This document shows positions 3,308 through 52,808 of a DNA stretch of 54,473 nt, in pieces (the first letter of the stretch is position 1; each line of letters begins with the position of its first letter). Origin of the DNA: a virus (Duplodnaviria; Heunggongvirae; Uroviricota; Caudoviricetes); the IMG/VR virus record IMGVR_UViG_2588253749_000004. One strand, written 5' to 3'. The notes beneath the pieces were generated by a model, which was given only the letters and a program-made list of their open reading frames with translations, searched no databases and was not told where the DNA came from. Both the position numbers and the translations under genes were made by a program.

Positions 3308-3883
3308 CTACGGCAGTGCTGGCCATTCAATATCCTGTGCAGTTGACGTATCAACACGGTTCAGCAATACCCGATACTTTTTCCATGCTTCCAGCAACGA
3401 GATTTCTTCCTCCGTTGCAATTTCCAGATCTGCAGCATCCTGAAGCGGCGCAATATGCTCACTGGCTACCTGCATCAGGTTGTTTTTTGTTTCTTCCGCC
3501 TCCCGGATCCGGAACAGTTTTTCTGCTTCCGTATCCTTCACCCAGGCTGTGCCGTTCCACTTCTGAAACTCCCCTTCCGGGGATAACCAGGTGACATTTT
3601 CCGGTAATGGGCCAAGTTCAGAAATAAATAACGCGTCGCCGGAAGCCACGTCATAGACGGTTTTACCCCGATGATCTTCAACGAGATGCCACGATGCCTC
3701 ATCACTGTTGAAAACAGCCACGAAGCCAGCCGGAATATCTGGCGGTGCAATATAGGAACTGTTTGCTGGCAGACCTGTATGAGGCGGAATATATGCGTCA
3801 CCTTCACCAATAAATTCATTAGTTCCTGCCAGCAGATTATAAATTTTTATGGTCCGTGGTTGTTCACTCATTCTGAATGCCAT
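3308..3883 (-). CDS. tfa: Tail fibre assembly protein (Tfa)
   Basis: 191 aa, immediately downstream of and overlapping the stf stop; sequence typical of lambdoid Tfa chaperones. Confidence 0.85.
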
Positions 3884-21848: not shown

Positions 21849-24015
<2,167 letters not shown>

Positions 24016-33222: not shown

Positions 33223-33493
33223 GATGTTACCGTAGTATGTGAGTATCCATCGAATAGATACCAAGCAAAAAAGCTCCCGAAGGAGCCTTCATTTTCACTT
33301 TTTTAAATCCAACGACAGACGGCTGGCATTTAAGTATTGTGAAATATTATCAAATGTAATCATCATTGATTTACAAAAGATACATTTTGCCCCGAAAGGA
33401 TTCATGTCAGAAACATCAAAAGATGATGTTCTATACTGGGAACCATGACAACACGGGCATCTAAAGTGAATATGGTTTGTAATATTGTCTACC

Positions 33494-33706
33494 TCAAAGC
33501 GCCACTACATGAACAGCGGCAGGACCTTTAGGTCCGTTCTCAATACCAAATTCAACTTCCTGATTCTCAGTTAATGTTTTGAAATCGTTGCTCTGAATTG
33601 CTGAGAAATGGACAAACACATCTTTGCTGCCATCTTTCGGCGTGATGAAACCAAAACCTTTTTCAGGGTTAAACCATTTCACTAAACCAGTCATTTTGTT
33701 AGACAT
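33494..33706 (-). CDS. cspI: Cold-shock protein CspI-like
   Basis: 70 aa; CSD motifs [12 protein letters not shown] and VFVHF. Confidence 0.9.
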
Positions 33707-34069
33707 AATTATTACCTTTTGAAGAAATTAGCCCTTGGGCAGAATGGTCCGAAAAAAAATATCAGAGAGAAAAACCAACAAGGAAATCTCAAGAGGTACA
33801 AATAATAAAATTATAACAATGACTGCTTCAGATAAATTTGTAACAAACCAGAACACCATTAACGCATGATTAACCACCCATAGCAAGGATTACTTTTGTA
33901 AAGAAAAACACAGCAATGAAAGAATAGCTTTATTTATTAATAATAACGTGTCATTCTGATTAAGACCTTTTATCTTACCCTTAAGATTTCAGGAATTTTG
34001 GCTCATGGAAGAGTCCTTTTTATTTAAATTTTACATTCCGCGATGTAAATGTTCCGATTTAATATTACC

Positions 34070-35409: not shown

Positions 35410-35625
35410 TTACTCTCCTCTCGCAGCCTTACGCCTGTCTTCTTTAATCTTGAAATAAAGATTTGTCAGATACGTCAGCATGCCAAATACCAGACTACCC
35501 AATACACCTATTGCCGCCCACTGTGAGGGCGTGACTTTATCGAGCAACTGTAAAAACCAGTAGCCAGCACTGCCTGCAGAGGTGCTGTAGGCGATGCCCG
35601 TTGTTAACTTATCCATGGATTTCAT
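35410..35625 (-). CDS. Pinholin (phage 21 S21-type class II holin) with dual-start motif
   Basis: 71 aa starting MKSMDK (Met1/Met4 dual start); sequence closely matches my recollection of S21; two TM segments. Confidence 0.85.
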
Positions 35626-35815
35626 AGCCTCACCTCCGCAGATAACGGATGGTGTACACGGTTTGGTTCGAAGAAGGAAAGAAGTTACATTAGCGTAAGG
35701 CCCGAACATCTATTCAAAAAGAAAAACGCCAGCAATTATTCTGGCGTAGCTAAAAATATCGTATAATCTTACACTTCAAAAAATAACTTTATAAAATGCC
35801 ATCACATCATATCTT

Positions 35816-36538
35816 CTAAGAAAATCTTGATAAATATTGGTGCGGAGGCACACCAAAATATCCTCTAAAAACACTTACAAAATATGATGCATTGTCATAC
35901 CCGCATATTCCCGCCACCTTGCCGACAGTATGGTTACTGTAGATCAATAATCTTTGCGCCATCATCATTCGTTCTTCAAGAATTAATTTACTAAACGATA
36001 ATCCTTCGTCTTTTAATTTTCTTTTTAACAAACTCTCGCTCATATATAATCTTGAAGATATATCACAAAGTCTCCATGACGCTGAGATATCCGAGTGAAT
36101 AATAGCCTTAACTTTACAACCTAAGCTATTAAGACTTCCGAACAAAAAACTTTGCACTATTTTCTCTGAAGATAAGACAGCAAGACATGCAAGTGATATT
36201 TGATTTCTAACTACATCCACGGTTTTGCTATCACAATTCAAGCATGCAACCAAGTTCTTTAACAATGAAAAATCTTCACATTCTACTATCAAGTATGACG
36301 GATAAAACCTTCTTACAGAAAAAGGTGAGAGTGTGTAGTTTTTAAAGAAATCATTAACTGTTTTCTCCTCAACATCTACGATCATTAGATGATCTGTATT
36401 TGACGAAAAAAGATCTTTTAAATTGTATTCAATGAGGACAGCATTTCCTTTTTTAAACAAAATATCTTCTTTACCAATTCGGACACCAAACGAGTTCAAC
36501 ACCAAAATGATAGAACATATGTATGACATATTATCCAC
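35816..36538 (-). CDS. AraC-family transcriptional regulator (AppY/GadX/YdeO-like)
   Basis: 240 aa; C-terminal AraC-type HTH; visibly AT-rich gene. Confidence 0.8.
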   Translation of the reverse strand: MDNMSYICSIILVLNSFGVRIGKEDILFKKGNAVLIEYNLKDLFSSNTDHLMIVDVEEKTVNDFFKNYTLSPFSVRRFYPSYLIVECEDFSLLKNLVACLNCDSKTVDVVRNQISLACLAVLSSEKIVQSFLFGSLNSLGCKVKAIIHSDISASWRLCDISSRLYMSESLLKRKLKDEGLSFSKLILEERMMMAQRLLIYSNHTVGKVAGICGYDNASYFVSVFRGYFGVPPHQYLSRFS

Positions 36539-36935
36539 CTGATATCATTGGGGTTACACCAGGTAAGTATAGGTGGAAAATCAATATTCGCCAGTTCAAC
36601 AATAAGGAAAATCTCATTGCATCACAACTATAAAACCATGTGTTTAACTCACAAAAAACAAATCATTAAACTAATCTGTTATATTATAATAGCTGCGTGC
36701 AATAATAATATTATATGCTCTTTATATTCACTTGAAATATCTTCATATAAAAACAGATTGAATAAAATCTTTTGGGGTTGGTATGTTTACCAACATTAAA
36801 TTGCATCTCAATGTTTTCTTTAGCGTGAACAGGATTTTTATAAAAAATGACACTATGAGCATCATAGCGTAGTTTTTACGATTGTAAATATCCTGCATAC
36901 AGGAACTCATCACTTTCAGATGATATCGCATACAG

Positions 36936-37896
36936 TTAATTCACCATCAGTCTTAGAGCCAGTTCTTCCGGATAGGGATCGAAGTAATTCTGTGTAAGCA
37001 AGTAATCATTAGGATACTCACCCAGATAATGCTTCAGCAGAGTCAACGGCGCAAGAAGAGGCAATGTGCCAAAGCGATAGTTAAGTATAACCTCGCTCAA
37101 CTCTTTACGCTGGCGTGTACTTAAGTAATTACTAAAATACCCCTGTATATGCATCAGCACATTCGTGTGATTTTTACGTGATGCTGGTTTTCTGAGAATC
37201 GCCATCAGATTATCACGATACACCTCAAAGTATGATTCAAGGTCCGCCCACTCGTGTATTGCAGCCACAAATGGTCCCATATCTTTATAGCCTGCCTGGC
37301 TATGCGCCAACAACTGAAGCTTATAACGACTATGAAAAGCTAATAACTCTCTTCTTGATAATTTCTCCTTGTAAAGGTGATTGAGCTCATGCAAAGCAAA
37401 AACTCTTTCAATAAAATTCTCACGAAGCACTGGATCATGTAATCGCCCATCCTCTTCAACCGGTAGCCAGGAAAACTTTTCCATCAAAGTGCTCGTAAAT
37501 AGTCCCACTCCATCTTTACGACCTCGATTACCATTTTCATCATAGACACGCACGCGCTCCATGCCACAGCTGGGAGATTTAGCACAAACCACAAACCCCG
37601 ATACATCCTTTAATTTGTCCATATAAGAACGACTAAACTCTGTCATTCTCTCTGTCACATCCTCATTCTGGTCGTGGCTGAAACACATCCGTATATTTCC
37701 TTGCTTCGAGCGCACAAGTCGTAGAGCAGGACGCGGAAACTGGCAGCCCTATAGCCATTTCCGGACATACTGGTCTGAATGTTACCCATTCCACTAATTT
37801 GTCCATTAAAAAGTCATCTCTTTTGTGACCACCATCAAAACGAACAGCAGAACCGCCCAAACAACCGCTGATCCCAATCACAGGTTTTTTTATCAT
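36936..37896 (-). pseudogene. YbgA-like (DUF523 + DUF1722) gene split by a single-base frameshift
   Basis: ORFs 37663-37896 (N-terminal part) and 36936-37715 (C-terminal part) together cover a YbgA-like protein. Removing one T from the GTTT run at ~37737-37740 restores ...IGLPVPRPALRL... Confidence 0.7.
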
Positions 37897-38088
37897 TTCC
37901 TCCCCCTTGACTAATTCATTAACACATAAACTTTGTAGTGCACGGACTAAATTGCCTTTCTGGCTTCATCACTGACAATTTTTCTGTTATTGACTATTCC
38001 TAATATAGTAGGAAAGTTCTTTAAGTGATCGGTCGTACTCATCTATCTTTCATACTTACTCTCAACTATCAAAAGTACAGGATTTATT

Positions 38089-38613
38089 ATGAAGTTATGG
38101 CCTGTGTTGACTGGCATTGCACTCTCTTTCACTCTTATAGCATGTAAGGCCCCGACACCACCTAAAGGTGTGCAGCCGATTACAAATTTTGACGCCAACC
38201 GCTACCTCGGAAAATGGTATGAAATAGCTCGCCTCGAGAACTGGTTCGAACGTGGTCTGGAACAGGTCAGCGCTACTTATGAAAAACGGAACGACGGAGG
38301 GATTCGCGTACTTAACCGTGGATACGATCCAACGAAAAACAAATGGAGCGAGAGCGAAGGTAAAGCATACTTTACTGGAGATACTAAAACTGCAGCGTTG
38401 AAAGTTTCGTTTTTTGGCCCCTTCTATGGTGGCTATAATGTAATCAAACTGGATGATGAGTATAAGTATGCTCTTGTCAGTGGTCCGAACAGAGAATACC
38501 TATGGATTCTGGCAAGGACCCAAACTATTCCAGATAATGTAAAAGCAGACTATGTGCGTACCGCTCAAAAGTTGGGATTCAATGTCAATGAACTATTATG
38601 GGTTAAACAATAA
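38089..38613 (+). CDS. blc: Outer-membrane lipoprotein Blc (bacterial lipocalin) paralog
   Basis: 174 aa; lipobox LIAC; lipocalin motifs (NFDANRYLGKWYEIAR ...) closely matching my recollection of E. coli Blc. Confidence 0.85.
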   Translation: MKLWPVLTGIALSFTLIACKAPTPPKGVQPITNFDANRYLGKWYEIARLENWFERGLEQVSATYEKRNDGGIRVLNRGYDPTKNKWSESEGKAYFTGDTKTAALKVSFFGPFYGGYNVIKLDDEYKYALVSGPNREYLWILARTQTIPDNVKADYVRTAQKLGFNVNELLWVKQ

Positions 38614-38641
38614 AATCCCCACCCGAAATGATACTTATTAG

Positions 38642-38668
38642 AAAAAAACCAGCCTTTGGGGAGGCTGG
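38642..38668 (-). terminator. Putative tR'-like intrinsic terminator downstream of Q
   Basis: On the minus strand: stem ccagcc/ggctgg followed by TTTTTTT, about 100 nt after the Q stop. Confidence 0.4.
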
Positions 38669-38768
38669 CTAAATCAGGAAACAAGCTGTTATATGATAAT
38701 AACTACGTTGCGATTCCAACATTTAAAATGTTAGACTAATGAAAATCAGACAGCAACTTTTCCTTTAA

Positions 38769-39146
38769 TTATTTCGAACAATCAGCATCCATCTCCAATC
38801 GGAGATCCAACACCATCAGCATGCCCTCCACTACGCCCTCAGCTTTCTGGAGCATCCTGCCAACCCAACAATCAGATCGCCCATGCTTATGTGCAAGCGC
38901 CATAAAAGTCATGCCGCCGACATAATAGTCCACCAATAAATCATGTAAATCGCTGTTGTTTTTTTTCAGGCGAGCCATACATTCACAAATGATCATCGCG
39001 TCATCGTCACAGCATTGCGGACGAGATCTTACTTTTGAAGGAATTAATCCCTTAAAACCGGCGGCAATGGACGACCAGGTCACATCTTCATGATTATTAG
39101 CCGCCCATGCCCCCCAACGCTCAAGAACCATCTGAATATCACGCAT
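38769..39146 (-). CDS. Q: Late-gene antitermination protein Q
   Basis: About 125 aa starting [22 protein letters not shown]; Cys-rich zinc-binding region; matches my recollection of Qin QuuQ. Confidence 0.85.
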
Positions 39147-39163
39147 CAACTTACTCCACAAAA

Positions 39164-40213
39164 TTAGGCCAGCACACCAATTGCCAGCGCGCGATCGATA
39201 AATCGAAAAATCAGCTCCAGTTGGGAGCCATACTTCTCTTCAAATGCCACGGTATCCGTATGCAACTCGTCGTGATGCTTTCTGCACAAAGGCAAAACAA
39301 AGAGATCATGTGCTTTGGTTCCCATTCCGCCCTGCCCGTGACCAATCAGATGATGCGGATCGTCGGCTGGCATACCGCAGCAAGCACACGGCTGTGTCTT
39401 AACCCAGCGTGTGTATTTCTCCTTAACCCACCGGTGACGTTTAGGCAGCTTCATGAAAGATTCCGGAGACTCTGGATCAACGGTGATGCTTACCACCGTC
39501 TTTTCCTGTGATGGGTTTTGTTGCTGGTGGGCGTGAGGCAACGGTGCAAGATTTTTTGTGCGCTGTTTCAATATGCTGGTGGCGGTCTGCTCTCCCGGTA
39601 CGATGTCGCTTTCGCGGTACACCGAGCAGATTTTTTCCGCTGGTAATCCCAGCGAGCGACGTAATACCGCTTCCGGTAGCGCGTCCGCCAGCTGATTGCG
39701 GACCGCCCACCAGGATAATTCAGCCAGAGATAATTCACGCTCCTGCGTACCGCTTATTGCGTGACCGATGACGTCAATCATCCATGCTGACAGGTTTTGA
39801 TGAGCAAGTTGCTCGAGTGATTCGGATGTCTGGTCACGCAGCTGGTTGTCGCAGTGCCAGCACAACACCATTGCGCCGGTACCATATCGGTGAATAACGG
39901 TTTCGCTGTGATGATAATCGCCGTGTGGCCACTGGCAGGATTTAATATGGCGCAACAGCCAGTCAGACAATGCACCAGCACCACCAGCAGCACGAATTAC
40001 CCGTGCGTTACTGAAAAACGGCAGCAATGTTTTGTCTTCCACCAGCGGCTGGCGAACGGCAGGAACGACCCCGGACGGCAGATTACGCATGCTTTTCGGT
40101 TCCGGCTCCACCAGTACCCGGGTATTGTGGAATACCGGCATGGATTCACGGCCCGGCTTAACGACCACCAGCCCGAGTTCCGGTACCAGAACAGGTCGAA
40201 GTAATACCCGCAC
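39164..40213 (-). CDS. ydfU: YdfU-like DUF968 protein with HNH-like C-terminal motif
   Basis: 349 aa; C-terminal CACCG...HHLIGHG...CRKHHDELH (HNH/zinc-finger-like); position upstream of Q as in Qin. Confidence 0.75.
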
Positions 40214-40951: not shown

Positions 40952-41107
40952 TTACTCCTCAGGTTCGTAAGCTGTGAAGACAGCGACCTCCGTCTGGCCG
41001 GTTCGGATTCGTACCTCGCAGAGGTCTTTCCTCGTTACCAGTGCCGTCACTATGACGGTTAAACAGATGACGATCAGGGCGATTAACATCGCCTTTTGCT
41101 GCTTCAT
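40952..41107 (-). CDS. hokD: Hok-family type I toxin (HokD/RelF-like)
   Basis: 51 aa MKQQKAMLIALIVICLTVIVTALVTRKDLCEVRIRTGQTEVAVFTAYEPEE; the upstream in-frame extension looks mok-like; hairpins flank the gene. Confidence 0.9.
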   Translation of the reverse strand: MKQQKAMLIALIVICLTVIVTALVTRKDLCEVRIRTGQTEVAVFTAYEPEE

Positions 41108-41722
41108 AGCCTGCTTCTCCTTGCCTTTCGGCACGTAAGAGGCTAACCTACATGTGTCTAGCATGAAATTGGCCTCAGATTAATGTTAAGCGTCTTGCAG
41201 GACGCGTAATGTTAACTGGGGCTTTTCTCTATCTGCCTTTGGTGTTCATGCCTGAGGCAGATAGCCTCAAGCACCCGCAGCAATTCTACTTAACTCACGT
41301 CACCTCGCCAATATAAAATCAATCAGAAAGGCGATCCGTAAGAACAACAGCAAGACAATAAATTGCCATTACAGCCGCAATAGCTAGCGCACATTTGAGA
41401 ACCAGCACGACAACCTCCTGTATTGGACGTACACCAGTCCTGATAAATATGAGGCTGTCTCATCATTGATTCAATATAACTATTGGGTATAGTTTCTGTG
41501 ATTTTGTTCTGTAGAAATGGAACACAACAACCAGTCTCCACCAGCACTTCTTTAAATACGCCAAGTCCGACGCAAGCTAACCTTCTAGTCCGCTTTGAGC
41601 GAACTGTGGAAGCTCGCAAATGTTGTTACATCTGATGAAGGCATTACTCAAAGGAGGGGATAGTAGTCAACGTGGAGCAGGCCATGTTAGTATTTTTATA
41701 CAATTCGACTAAGGGAAAAACA

Positions 41723-42592
41723 ATGAGGCTTTACATAATAGGAAATGGATTTGACATGCGTCATGGCTTACCAACAGGATACAAGCACTTTAAGTCGTAT
41801 GTAGAAAAAAATGACCAAGATCTATATGACGCGATAGAAGAATACATTCCTGCTGGGGACGAGTGGAATGAGTTAGAAAATGCTTTAGGTGAAATTGATT
41901 ATGAGCTTATCCTTCAAAACAGTGAGATATTTTTGGCTTCATACAATACCGATGATTGGAGCGATGCTTATCATCACGATTACCAATATGAAGTAAATAA
42001 AATCACACAAATGCTGTCAGCTCGTTTGAAGGAGCAATTCGCTGATTGGGTTAAAGGGATTAACATAGCCGATGCTTACAATCCTAAGCAATACATCCCG
42101 CCCATACCAAGAGAAAGCATCTATTTTTCATTTAATTATACAAATACCTTGCAGCAGATCTATGCCGTTCCAGACGAGCAAATCATACATATTCACGGCA
42201 ATTGTAGTTACGATGACGATCTCATACTTGGTCATAGTTTTAGGGTGGAAAAGTCACTAAATCCATATATAGGACCGGATCAAGATACAAGAATAGCAGA
42301 GGCATACGACAGAATAAACGAATACTTCGGTAATACATTCAAGCCCAGCGAAGACATAATTAAAGAAGAAAACGTTTTTTTCTCATCGCTTAAAAATGTG
42401 GACGAGGTCATCGTTTTAGGCCACTCGCTCGCCGAAGTTGACGGTGAATACTTTACTGAAATAAATAAAAGCATCCAAGAAAATGCTCGATGGATAGTTG
42501 CTTTATATAGAGGTGAGAAAAAATCAGGCAGTTTAGAAGATTATGGTATCAGAGGCTCAAATATTTCTTACGTACAGTATGAAGATATCTGA
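41723..42592 (+). CDS. AbiH-family protein (abortive-infection AbiH-like)
   Basis: About 289 aa from MRLYIIGNGFDMRHGLPTGYKHF, which resembles the AbiH N-terminal signature as I recall it; visibly AT-rich; RBS present. Confidence 0.7.
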   Translation: MRLYIIGNGFDMRHGLPTGYKHFKSYVEKNDQDLYDAIEEYIPAGDEWNELENALGEIDYELILQNSEIFLASYNTDDWSDAYHHDYQYEVNKITQMLSARLKEQFADWVKGINIADAYNPKQYIPPIPRESIYFSFNYTNTLQQIYAVPDEQIIHIHGNCSYDDDLILGHSFRVEKSLNPYIGPDQDTRIAEAYDRINEYFGNTFKPSEDIIKEENVFFSSLKNVDEVIVLGHSLAEVDGEYFTEINKSIQENARWIVALYRGEKKSGSLEDYGIRGSNISYVQYEDI

Positions 42593-42675
42593 ATGAGACT
42601 TCATATTATAACTATAATTATGTAAAAAAGGCTGGTATTTTATACCTTGAGGAAAATAGATAAGAGGAATGAGGT

Positions 42676-44073
42676 TTGGTTATGATGAATTATACTGATG
42701 AGTCAACTTTTCTTGAAAAGTACAAACCGTTTAGGAAGTTTTGGACAATTTTATCACCTCATTATGTATCTTTAATGCATGCACTTGCCAAAATGATAAG
42801 GGGAGGGAATCCAATTCAAGAACTACCTTCCAATGATGAGGATTTTCTTGCAGAGTATGAAACCTGTCTCAAAAATTGGAAACACTCACAAAAAATCATA
42901 TCTTTTGAGATTATTATTCGGCTGAGAGATATAAAAAGATTGGAAACTGAAAAAAAAGAGCACCATCGAAACAAGGATAAAGAAAATAAAGAAAAGTGTA
43001 TTGATGAAATAAGTTTAAAAAAATTTGAAATTCTTATTCTTCGCCGTTGTATTGACTCAATAATTTGGAGCATTCTTGATGAAGAACACTCTAGTTTGCG
43101 GCGTTTACCTATTAATGCAAGCAATGACAATCTATCAGAAGATAACATAATTGATTCTATGGTCGCAGCCGATCTTATCAACCAGGACAAACACTCCGTA
43201 GCGATTGTCTCTGACATGAGCACATTTGTTCATGTGGGAGATTTAGTCACCTTTAATCTACTGGATGGCTTCCAGCTCGTGGAAGTTAAAACAGGTGAAA
43301 AGAATAATGAGCTTTATGAAGCTGCTGAATTTTCTGTTATCTCAGAATGTCCGCACTTTGAAGAAAACTTCATTAACAATATGCCTGATAATGATGTTAA
43401 GCAATTTAATCGCATAAAAAGGCAAATCATTCGTGGCATGAATGTTCTGGAGGCGATTAATACTGGCGAGGGCTTTGACAACTTTCATCAGTCTAAAGTT
43501 AAAATCAATGAGATAGATCATCCGTCTGAATTTTATACCCACCGCTTAGTTAAAATGTGGGAGATTATTCGCGGAGGAAAAAATTGGGCAATTGATACTA
43601 TTGATGAATGTTTGTTCTTAGGTATGTACCGTGATTCTGAAATGGGCTTTGTTGCCTTCAATGGATGGATGGATAGTCTCGGTATAAAAAGCCCTGTTGT
43701 GAATATAAATGATTCATTCTTTGACCCTTTGTCTCGACCATTTATGAGTTTGCATCTGCCAACTGAAATGCTCTCCGATCTCATGTCGGGACAAATAATC
43801 ATCGTCATGTGTTTTGACAATGAACTTTTTTTTCACCGTGCTAACAAAACGTACCCGGGTTTATATCTCCTTAGCGATGCAGCAAGAACAAAGCAGCCAT
43901 TAGAAAATATTCTTCGTGTTGGTTCACAAGGGATAGCTTCTTACGTAGATGGGAATACCAGCTTTTTAGGTAATGGTATTGAATCCCGTATCCTTTTCGA
44001 TCAGCAACGACCCGACAACATTATTGAGTGGAGCTATGCTAGAAGCGATCTCAAAAAGCAACATGAAGCATAA
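42676..44073 (+). CDS. Hypothetical 465-aa protein, co-oriented partner of the AbiH-like gene
   Basis: Long uninterrupted ORF with GAGG RBS, 83 bp after the AbiH-like gene; visibly AT-rich; contains a possible PD-(D/E)xK-like motif (VHVGDLVTF...LVEVKTGEK). Function unknown. Confidence 0.6.
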   Translation: MVMMNYTDESTFLEKYKPFRKFWTILSPHYVSLMHALAKMIRGGNPIQELPSNDEDFLAEYETCLKNWKHSQKIISFEIIIRLRDIKRLETEKKEHHRNKDKENKEKCIDEISLKKFEILILRRCIDSIIWSILDEEHSSLRRLPINASNDNLSEDNIIDSMVAADLINQDKHSVAIVSDMSTFVHVGDLVTFNLLDGFQLVEVKTGEKNNELYEAAEFSVISECPHFEENFINNMPDNDVKQFNRIKRQIIRGMNVLEAINTGEGFDNFHQSKVKINEIDHPSEFYTHRLVKMWEIIRGGKNWAIDTIDECLFLGMYRDSEMGFVAFNGWMDSLGIKSPVVNINDSFFDPLSRPFMSLHLPTEMLSDLMSGQIIIVMCFDNELFFHRANKTYPGLYLLSDAARTKQPLENILRVGSQGIASYVDGNTSFLGNGIESRILFDQQRPDNIIEWSYARSDLKKQHEA

Positions 44074-48146: not shown

Positions 48147-48632
48147 AACTGTGGTGATTTTAAGGATACCACCTCGCCTGACGTGGTTAAAAGCAGGCAC
48201 ACAACACGAAAGCGCACGGCGAAGTTCGTCTCACTGTACGGTGTCGTTAAATTTAATTCGACCGTGCGCTTCCGGTTGTGGCAACCCGCGAAATGGCGCG
48301 GCGGTAAGTATGGCGGGGTTATTCCTTCCCCGTTGAGGACACCGAGTTGTCAGGTTGACCATACGCTTAAGTGACAACCCCGCTGCAACGCCCTCTGTTA
48401 TCAATTTTCTGGTGACGTTTGGCGGTATCAGTTTTACTCCGTGACTGCTCTGCCGCCGTTTTTAAAGTGAATTTTGTGATGCGGTGAATGCGGCTAAGCG
48501 CACGCGGAACAGTTAAAACCAAAAACAGTGTTATGGGTGGATTCTCTGTATCCGGCGTTAATTGTTAACTGGTTAACGTCACCTGGAGGCACCAGGCACT
48601 GCATCACAAAATTCATTGTTGAGGACGCGATA

Positions 48633-51476: not shown

Positions 51477-52808
<1,332 letters not shown>

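Follow-up and report, generated by a model that had tools for sequence, protein, structure and literature searches.

Why should genes whose homologs are normally chromosomal lie between the late-gene antiterminator gene Q and the lysis genes of a prophage? This question is raised by the virus record IMGVR_UViG_2588253749_000004, a stretch of 54,473 nucleotides (nt) of caudoviricete DNA that is here referred to as the window and to whose first letter all positions refer. A sequence-only reading of the window had described an AT-rich cargo island at this site, with an AraC-type regulator, a frameshifted ybgA-like gene, and a paralog of the Blc lipocalin. The window is a lambdoid prophage of the Qin type whose late genes lie on the minus strand, and the genes follow one another from right to left in the order ydfU, Q, lipocalin gene (blc2; plus strand), a gene with DUF523 and DUF1722 domains (rudS), AraC gene, holin, DUF1327 gene, lysozyme, and Rz (Table 1). 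With moderate confidence, we interpret the island as a mobile composite moron cassette that is carried on a single module of Q, late promoter, and tR' terminator, that replaces the cspB/cspF region of Qin, and that works as proposed below. The cassette is a known kind of moron element, found in approximately 18 to 20% of complete Escherichia coli genomes and always with the same Q. The copy in the window belongs to this known type and has one of its three genes broken.

The island was present where it had been described: the G+C content is 38.0% over positions 35655 to 38768 (window, 49.3%) and dips to 29 to 44% over 35.6 to 38.8 kb, with 47 to 56% in the flanks. A comparison with the adjacent lysis genes (47%) and ydfU (54%) thus gives the composition expected of a moron. 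Similarity to the Qin prophage of E. coli K-12 extends through the lysis genes up to position 35654 (97%) and resumes at position 39164 in ydfU (90%), and between these breakpoints K-12 Qin carries ynfU, cspB, cspF, ynfS, and a different Q gene. Relative to K-12 Qin, the island is therefore a dispensable insert between conserved phage modules that is missing from a related phage, which agrees with the earlier proposals that the slot holds accessory cargo and that cspB/cspF occupy the equivalent slot in K-12. Because the homology breaks at 35654 and 39164, the exchanged unit (35655 to 39163) consists of Q plus the cargo and not of the cargo alone. The slot between Q and the lysis genes is also the one occupied by stx in Shiga toxin (Stx) phages. 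The cspB/cspF cargo of K-12 Qin (after Q and the late terminator and before the holin gene) and the cargo of Sakai Sp4 (tRNAs and ECs_1085-1087, downstream of Q) lie in equivalent slots but consist of other genes, and the present cassette differs from such Q-to-lysis cargo in being swapped along with the Q allele.

Table 1. Positions of the cassette genes, their control signals, and the flanking genes in the window
Feature	Position	Strand	Remarks
Holin, DUF1327, lysozyme, and Rz genes	35625 down to 34070	-	Lysis-side flank
Class II holin gene essD/essQ	35410-35625	-	PF04971, 116 bits; TW10573 annotation; first lysis gene, downstream cassette border
Intrinsic terminator between AraC gene and holin gene	35726-35747	-	Terminator scan
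AraC/XylS-family regulator, 237 amino acids, WP_000120340.1	35816-36529 (open reading frame to 36538)	-	PatE/Psr/GadW/AppY/YdeO subgroup
Upstream intergenic region and leader of AraC gene, 30.5% G+C	36530-36935	-	
Promoter-like element TTTACA-N16-TATGAT	36861-36888	-	Just past the rudS stop codon; 10/12 consensus match
rudS, TudS/DUF523 + DUF1722 tRNA 4-thiouridine desulfidase	36936-37896	-	Pseudogene in the window
rudS frameshift, one extra base, codon 54	37737-37739	-	AAA versus AA on the plus strand
Divergent control region of blc2 and rudS, 192 bp	37897-38088		
blc2, Blc-family outer-membrane lipocalin lipoprotein, 174 amino acids	38089-38613	+	Against the late operon
Intrinsic terminator, tR'-like, followed by a run of seven T	38647-38670	-	~100 nt downstream of Q; terminator scan
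Q, late-gene antiterminator, 125 amino acids	38769-39146	-	PF06530, 170 bits; travels with the cassette
ydfU (DUF968)	39164-40213		Right flank, beyond Q

The Q protein is 94 to 98% identical in amino acid (aa) sequence to Q of phages 1H12 and IdasGreatGrand, and no nucleotide similarity was found between its gene and quuQ of K-12; the Q gene next to ECs_1087 in Sakai Sp4 has 76% nt identity to that of the window. The hairpin of the tR'-like terminator downstream of Q folds at -14.9 kcal/mol (z = -4.1) and is identical in the copies of 1H12, IdasGreatGrand, and contig L072 (see below), with 1H12 differing only at the 30th base of the searched terminator motif, in the T-run. The late promoter is presumed to lie within positions 38671 to 38768. 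Rfam was searched with the whole window (gathering thresholds) and with the island (E ≤ 1). The island had no match above threshold, and its sole sub-threshold match (28.6 bits versus 50) was the tR' hairpin itself. None of the three cassette proteins matched a known defense-system component in PADLOC.

The cassette is widespread as a unit. A 3.8-kb query was covered to at least 80% in 953 of the 5426 complete E. coli genomes, the lipocalin gene alone was found in 1134, and the AraC gene was found in 995 (at least 80% coverage). The order Q-blc2-rudS-araC-holin is also found in viable phages, namely, IdasGreatGrand (92% nt identity) and 1H12 together with ten Lambda_* records (86%), and in Logan contig L006, where it is combined with a different lysis cassette. 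The Lambda_ev* phages were isolated from infant-gut E. coli (Mathieu et al. 2020, PMC6969025). Between copies, the lipocalins are 96 to 97% identical, the RudS proteins 92 to 98%, and the AraC proteins 76 to 86%. The ratios of nonsynonymous to synonymous substitution rates (dN/dS) range from 0.07 to 0.28 (blc2, 0.07 to 0.23; rudS, 0.11 to 0.28; AraC gene, 0.20 to 0.27), which points to purifying selection on all three genes, and all three proteins fall into PHROG families of unknown function (phrog_1450 for the regulator). Two short contigs binned in a metagenome-assembled genome of 'Candidatus Nanosynbacter' (L067 and L072; JARKOR010000151.1 and JARKOR010000135.1) also carry Q, blc2, and rudS (92 to 97% aa identity), the AraC gene (85%), and the holin gene, and these are almost certainly misbinned E. 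coli phage DNA.

Parts of the cassette are already known: blc was described as a lambda moron in 2020 and RudS of phage 1H12 (RudS_vir) in 2024, so that the regulator alone is uncharacterized. Our literature search found no paper that treats the three genes as one cassette or notes the chromosomal pairing of blc2 and rudS that is described below, and the RefSeq accessions of the three proteins gave no literature hits. Given that the blc moron had been listed (PMC6969025), that the phage RudS had been assayed (PMC11417400), and that nearly a fifth of the complete E. coli genomes carry such genes, their presence at this site, which the sequence-only reading had called unexpected, is no surprise.

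The blc2 product was assigned to the lipocalins by Pfam (Lipocalin_2, PF08212; 146 bits versus a cut-off of 24) and to the Blc subfamily by NCBIfam (NF007786; 312.6 bits versus 267, positions 1 to 174 of 176). It starts with a lipoprotein signal (MKLWPVLTGIALSFTLIA-C19-K) that contains the lipobox LIAC (L-I-A-C19) and has Lys at position +2, and sorting to the outer membrane is predicted from the signal peptide and the +2 residue. Although K-12 Blc (b4149) shares the subfamily and the lipoprotein signal, it is only 59% identical to the blc2 product, whereas 77 to 80% identity is seen with a second chromosomal lipocalin, whose gene is a neighbor of rudS in Enterobacter, Leclercia, and part of Citrobacter. 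Membership in the Blc family thus stands, but blc2 is not derived from the blc gene of E. coli and instead belongs to this second lineage. The blc moron of 1H12 and the Lambda_ev* phages is an ortholog of blc2 (96% aa identity), and blc had been counted among the morons of >50% of the lambda phages from the infant gut (Mathieu et al. 2020, PMC6969025).

The second gene had been read as ybgA-like. It is not a copy of the housekeeping gene ybgA of E. coli but a full RudS fusion, of which K-12 YbgA matches only residues 164 to 315 (i.e., the C-terminal half; 49% identity), and K-12 has no such fusion. The fusion of TudS and DUF1722 was named RudS by Jamontas et al. 2024 (PMC11417400), who showed that RudS_vir of phage 1H12 lowers the content of 4-thiouridine (s4U) in the tRNA of E. 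coli. RudS_vir (H3V29_gp66) is the counterpart of the cassette gene in its two-domain architecture, length (319 aa), Cys ligands, and location after Q, with blc on one side and the AraC gene on the other; the window gene is unlike it in having a +1 frameshift at codon 54. In the window, rudS is split into two overlapping open reading frames (ORFs; 37663 to 37896 and 36936 to 37715, minus strand), and the Pfam domains 2-thiour_desulf (DUF523) and DUF1722 are found on the halves. The lesion is an extra A on the plus strand (GGAAACTGG in the window versus GGAACTGG) and is the sole difference from strain TW10573 over 3.8 kb. The TW10573 allele, which is one base shorter, encodes an intact 319-aa RudS that is 91.8% identical to RudS_vir (1H12 gp66), so that the fusion is a single polypeptide in TW10573 and the phage copies and not in the window. 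The cluster-binding residues Cys12, Cys44, and Cys110 (as listed for RudS_vir in PMC11417400) and Glu46, Ser107, and Ser109 (by position versus the catalytic residues Glu51, Ser111, and Ser113 of RudS_KT) are present in the intact allele. All six are encoded in the window, where the frameshift separates Cys12 and Cys44 from Cys110 and DUF1722, and the RudS of the window is presumably inactive.

The frameshift is carried by at most 1 of the 1077 E. coli genomes that have the 81-bp segment around it (match of at least 99%), with all hits listed showing a 1-base gap. The frameshift that had been noticed in the window is real in this sequence, but it is either a lesion private to it or an error and is not a feature of the island. 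Programmed frameshifting was rejected, since every other copy is in one frame. That the extra base is a sequencing or assembly error, with the gene intact in the real genome, is possible, if on the unlikely side: such an error is suggested by the nature of the change, a one-base lengthening of a short homopolymer (from TT to TTT, as read on the coding strand) that is essentially unshared and alone separates the locus from that of TW10573, but a three-base run is short for homopolymer errors, and private pseudogenizing mutations are common in cryptic prophages. A different lesion is seen in the BL21-RIPL assembly of the E. coli B lineage (NZ_CP083273.1:1-4000). Its Q is that of the window and its blc2 is complete (same protein, WP_000780584.1), with rudS present as only a 147-nt 5' stub that is annotated as a partial 2-thiouracil desulfurase. 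This record starts at the rudS stub and its far end looks unusual, which limits any reading of the extent of the deletion.

E. coli was said to lack homologs of TudS and RudS (PMC11417400). This statement holds for K-12 and not for the species, as prophage rudS was found in 1077 of the 5426 complete genomes (~20%).

A scan for RudS in one genome per species yielded 64 loci, of which 2 were the E. coli phage contigs L067 and L072 and 62 were chromosomal. The chromosomal loci belong mostly to Citrobacter, Enterobacter, Leclercia, Kluyvera, Lelliottia, and Pectobacterium, and their RudS proteins show 66 to 76% identity. In 41 of the 62, a lipocalin gene lies on the opposite strand at most 6 kb upstream of rudS, and its product is 68 to 80% identical to the phage protein (77 to 80% in most). 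The phage layout recurs in Citrobacter sedlakii, where blc2 and rudS are directly adjacent and divergent with a gap of 187 bp (192 bp in the window). In Enterobacter, the two genes flank a transthyretin-like gene and a gene for a MerR regulator that resembles MlrA. Homologs of the AraC gene were found at none of the 62 chromosomal loci; therefore, the cassette is composite, with a captured blc2-rudS pair and a regulator from elsewhere, the pair apparently having come from an enterobacterial chromosome. The larger chromosomal cluster is typified by one locus (L036:4021-6960) and similar ones in Enterobacter and Leclercia, with blc2 (minus strand) followed by the MlrA-like MerR gene, a transthyretin/HIUase-like gene, and rudS (all plus strand), which suggests a shared regulon, possibly responsive to light or stress, that links the lipocalin with the eraser of tRNA s4U.

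The third gene encodes an AraC-type regulator, as had been read, and its C-terminal DNA-binding domain, of the type with ~100 residues and two helix-turn-helix (HTH) motifs, is intact: the profile HTH_18 matched with 59.9 bits (cut-off, 33.6) over positions 2 to 79 of 80, so that the domain is complete, and HTH_AraC matched with 42.6 bits (cut-off, 26.6). The proposed comparison with AppY, GadX, and PatE places the protein among these regulators. BLASTP alignments gave 48% identity to PatE (Z0321; Sakai ECs_0287) over residues 1 to 237, 38% to ECs_1087 (residues 1 to 235), 33% to GadW (residues 1 to 232), and 30% to AppY (residues 1 to 235). YdeO is 30% identical and collinear over the full length, and GadX is 41% identical over the C-terminal domain only. 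Pairwise and multiple alignments showed full-length collinearity with the subgroup, including the short N-terminal domain of ~135 residues. The comparison with the Psr proteins rests on Sakai ECs_1087, which is named psrA in PMC13502914.

The recognition segment of the first HTH motif (SESLLKRKLK) is identical in PatE, and Lys169 and Lys171 lie in alignment columns with little or no variation among the relatives; one of these two residues is taken as the putative counterpart of the DNA-binding residue Lys170 of AppY. In an AlphaFold model built from an 11-sequence alignment (mean predicted local distance difference test [pLDDT] score, 70; weak at residues 60 to 135), the DNA-binding domain has pLDDT values of 86 to 95 and superposes on structure 3mkl with a root mean square deviation of 1.2 Å at 40% identity. 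In its entry, 3mkl is called simply a dual regulator of E. coli K-12, and we take it to be GadX. The top matches of the full-length model, Rns, CsvR, and ToxT (template modeling [TM] score of about 0.43), are hints of the fold class only.

PatE, ECs_1087, AppY, YdeO, GadW, and GadX, which are activators of the GAD/AR2 acid-resistance system, resemble the cassette regulator in lacking a sugar-binding cupin domain, and a prophage-borne, AT-rich gene is a further point in common. The cassette regulator differs from these relatives in forming its own lineage (phrog_1450), in having alleles of 237 and 243 aa, and in its linkage to blc2-rudS, which is found for no characterized relative. The relatives occupy two kinds of moron slots. 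Those of phages ev099 and mEp332, like PatE of Sp1, lie at the tail-fibre/attachment end, and ECs_1087 of Sakai Sp4 lies directly downstream of Q. The 237-aa protein of the window ends 6 residues before the 243-aa alleles. Among the complete genomes, approximately 330 carry the AraC allele of the window (at least 99% identity) and approximately 680 an allele that is ~89% identical. PatE, PsrB, and AppY activate gadE/hdeA and raise acid resistance (PMC10877973, PMC10057817), and by homology, a role in host acid resistance through gadE/hdeA is the most likely one for the cassette regulator.

Both rudS and the AraC gene are oriented with late transcription, and blc2 is opposite to it. The divergent control region between blc2 and rudS has a mean column identity of 96% among the window, 1H12, and IdasGreatGrand. 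The promoter-like element downstream of rudS is a candidate promoter of the AraC gene and would give a leader of roughly 330 nt. Both of its hexamers and most of its spacer are kept in four diverged copies, whereas the neighboring sequence and an overlapping hairpin (36850 to 36870) are not conserved. This hairpin (-9.2 kcal/mol in the window) was considered as a rudS terminator and rejected, as neither the stem nor the T-run is well preserved in the alleles of IdasGreatGrand and L006; the retention of the overlapping element despite this degradation favors the promoter reading. The AraC leader of the window includes ~54 bp that are missing from the 1H12, IdasGreatGrand, and L006 alleles. Two small ORFs in the leader (36743 to 36931, minus strand; 36548 to 36799, plus strand) have no Pfam match, and the annotated small ORFs of other copies are not frame conserved; these ORFs were rejected as genes and taken as noncoding. 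The terminator that follows the AraC gene, which lies outside the region shared with K-12 (starting at 35654), folds at -11.3 kcal/mol (z = -2.9), and its stem is kept in 1H12, IdasGreatGrand, and contigs L007 and L067.

These features suggest how the cassette may work. In the lysogen, blc2 would have a promoter of its own and be read in the direction opposite to the late operon, as is bor of lambda, and Blc2 would act as an envelope-maintenance lipoprotein. The AraC gene would be expressed from its own conserved promoter, and its own terminator would stop the transcript, so that the holin gene would stay silent. Like PatE, PsrB, AppY, YdeO, and GadW, the regulator would act on stress regulons of the host, with acid resistance through gadE/hdeA as the most probable target. 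Once the prophage is induced, RNA polymerase modified by Q would read through tR' and transcribe rudS and the AraC gene first and at a high level. As a putative [4Fe-4S] desulfidase that converts 4-thiouridine to uridine at tRNA position 8, RudS would lower tRNA s4U and hence the near-ultraviolet (near-UV) cross-linking of tRNA and the growth delay during phage protein synthesis. In the window, rudS is frameshifted and the prophage is further damaged by insertion sequences, which leaves blc2 and the regulator as the only cassette members that can be functional. The more specific idea, that rudS is kept as the first late gene because this couples induction to the erasure of the near-UV sensor s4U8, with the AraC protein and the lipocalin as the lysogen-phase half of a stress-protection package, is speculative and rather doubtful.

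Several observations weigh against the proposed cassette and its working. In the promoter scan, no promoter of blc2 or rudS reached the consensus threshold, and the promoters that were found are consensus-level predictions. The phage copies of blc2-rudS have a G+C content of 43 to 44%, compared with 57 to 59% for their closest chromosomal relatives; consequently, these relatives do not point to the actual donor, and the direction of transfer is itself inferred. The regulator scores far below the NCBIfam equivalog cut-offs (114 versus 348 bits for YdeO and 90 versus 500 bits for GadX) and, by these sequence scores, is a relative and not an ortholog of either protein. Identity of 48% to PatE may not extend to the same DNA targets, and the N-terminal half of the regulator model is of low confidence (pLDDT of <50 at residues 99 to 133). 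Although RudS_vir accumulated well as a protein, it desulfidated tRNA less than did the other RudS enzymes in the same study (PMC11417400), and tRNA may not be its sole or main substrate. In addition, any benefit based on RudS is inapplicable to the strain of the window, where the gene is broken.

A different role for the regulator is also conceivable. AraC-family proteins often regulate neighboring genes, and the AraC protein could be a local regulator of blc2 and/or rudS rather than of host acid-resistance genes, taking the place of the MlrA-like MerR protein of Enterobacter. Both genes that the Enterobacter pair encloses are missing from the phage cassette, where the AraC gene stands beside rudS, and the three cassette genes remain linked across copies whose AraC proteins diverge by 15 to 24%. 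We nonetheless regard this alternative as unlikely, as the closest relatives of the regulator (PatE, the ev099 and mEp332 genes, ECs_1087, and AppY) are found apart from blc2 and rudS and have host genes as their targets, and the blc2-rudS pair of C. sedlakii has no regulator between its genes. A further alternative is that the cassette is decaying without function in a cryptic prophage and that its genes are inert in this strain. This might be suggested by the frameshift in rudS, by the insertion sequences of the prophage (several, among them one of the IS21 family in the portal gene that is absent from TW10573), and by the BL21-RIPL assembly with only blc2 and the 5' rudS stub. We regard it as quite improbable, because blc2 and the AraC gene are intact, the low dN/dS values hold across lineages for all three genes, viable phages carry the cassette, and the near absence of the frameshift elsewhere indicates that the cassette is maintained as a class.

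About one-fifth of complete E. coli genomes carry the cassette, whose genes therefore represent a widespread yet unstudied part of the accessory physiology of the species. The AraC-type gene, which is frequent among isolates of commensal, animal, and clinical origin, is a further candidate beside AppY, PatE, and PsrA/B for the prophage regulators of acid resistance and virulence control. Phage induction in nature is often triggered by UV light. If the proposed function of RudS is true, erasure of s4U8 would avert the tRNA cross-linking, stringent response, and growth delay that cut phage yield, and rudS would represent a virus-encoded 'eraser' of a tRNA modification as an auxiliary gene. Phage rudS is a naturally occurring case in which to study why a temperate phage would remove a tRNA modification.

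Other features of the prophage lie outside the cassette. One copy each of ISEc43 and IS1 in TW10573 is missing from the window, and the two prophages are otherwise >99.9% identical. The IS21-family element lies at 22010 to 23955 and encodes an IstA-like protein of 340 aa (22856 to 23878) and an IstB protein of 260 aa (22077 to 22859); the portal gene is uninterrupted in TW10573. Matches above the Rfam gathering scores were found at 3342 to 3540, 33467 to 33852, 41102 to 41276, 48407 to 48458, and 52536 to 52658, namely, IS009, a cspA-type thermoregulator upstream of cspI, the sok antitoxin RNA (with hokD), DicF, and isrC. Finally, an AbiH-family abortive-infection gene and a gene for a 463-aa hypothetical protein lie at about 41684 to 44073 (plus strand; located from the TW10573 annotation, L001:26284-28673). 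This stretch has a G+C content of 31 to 38%, lies between hokD/sok and a DUF977 gene, and looks like a second cargo or defense insertion.

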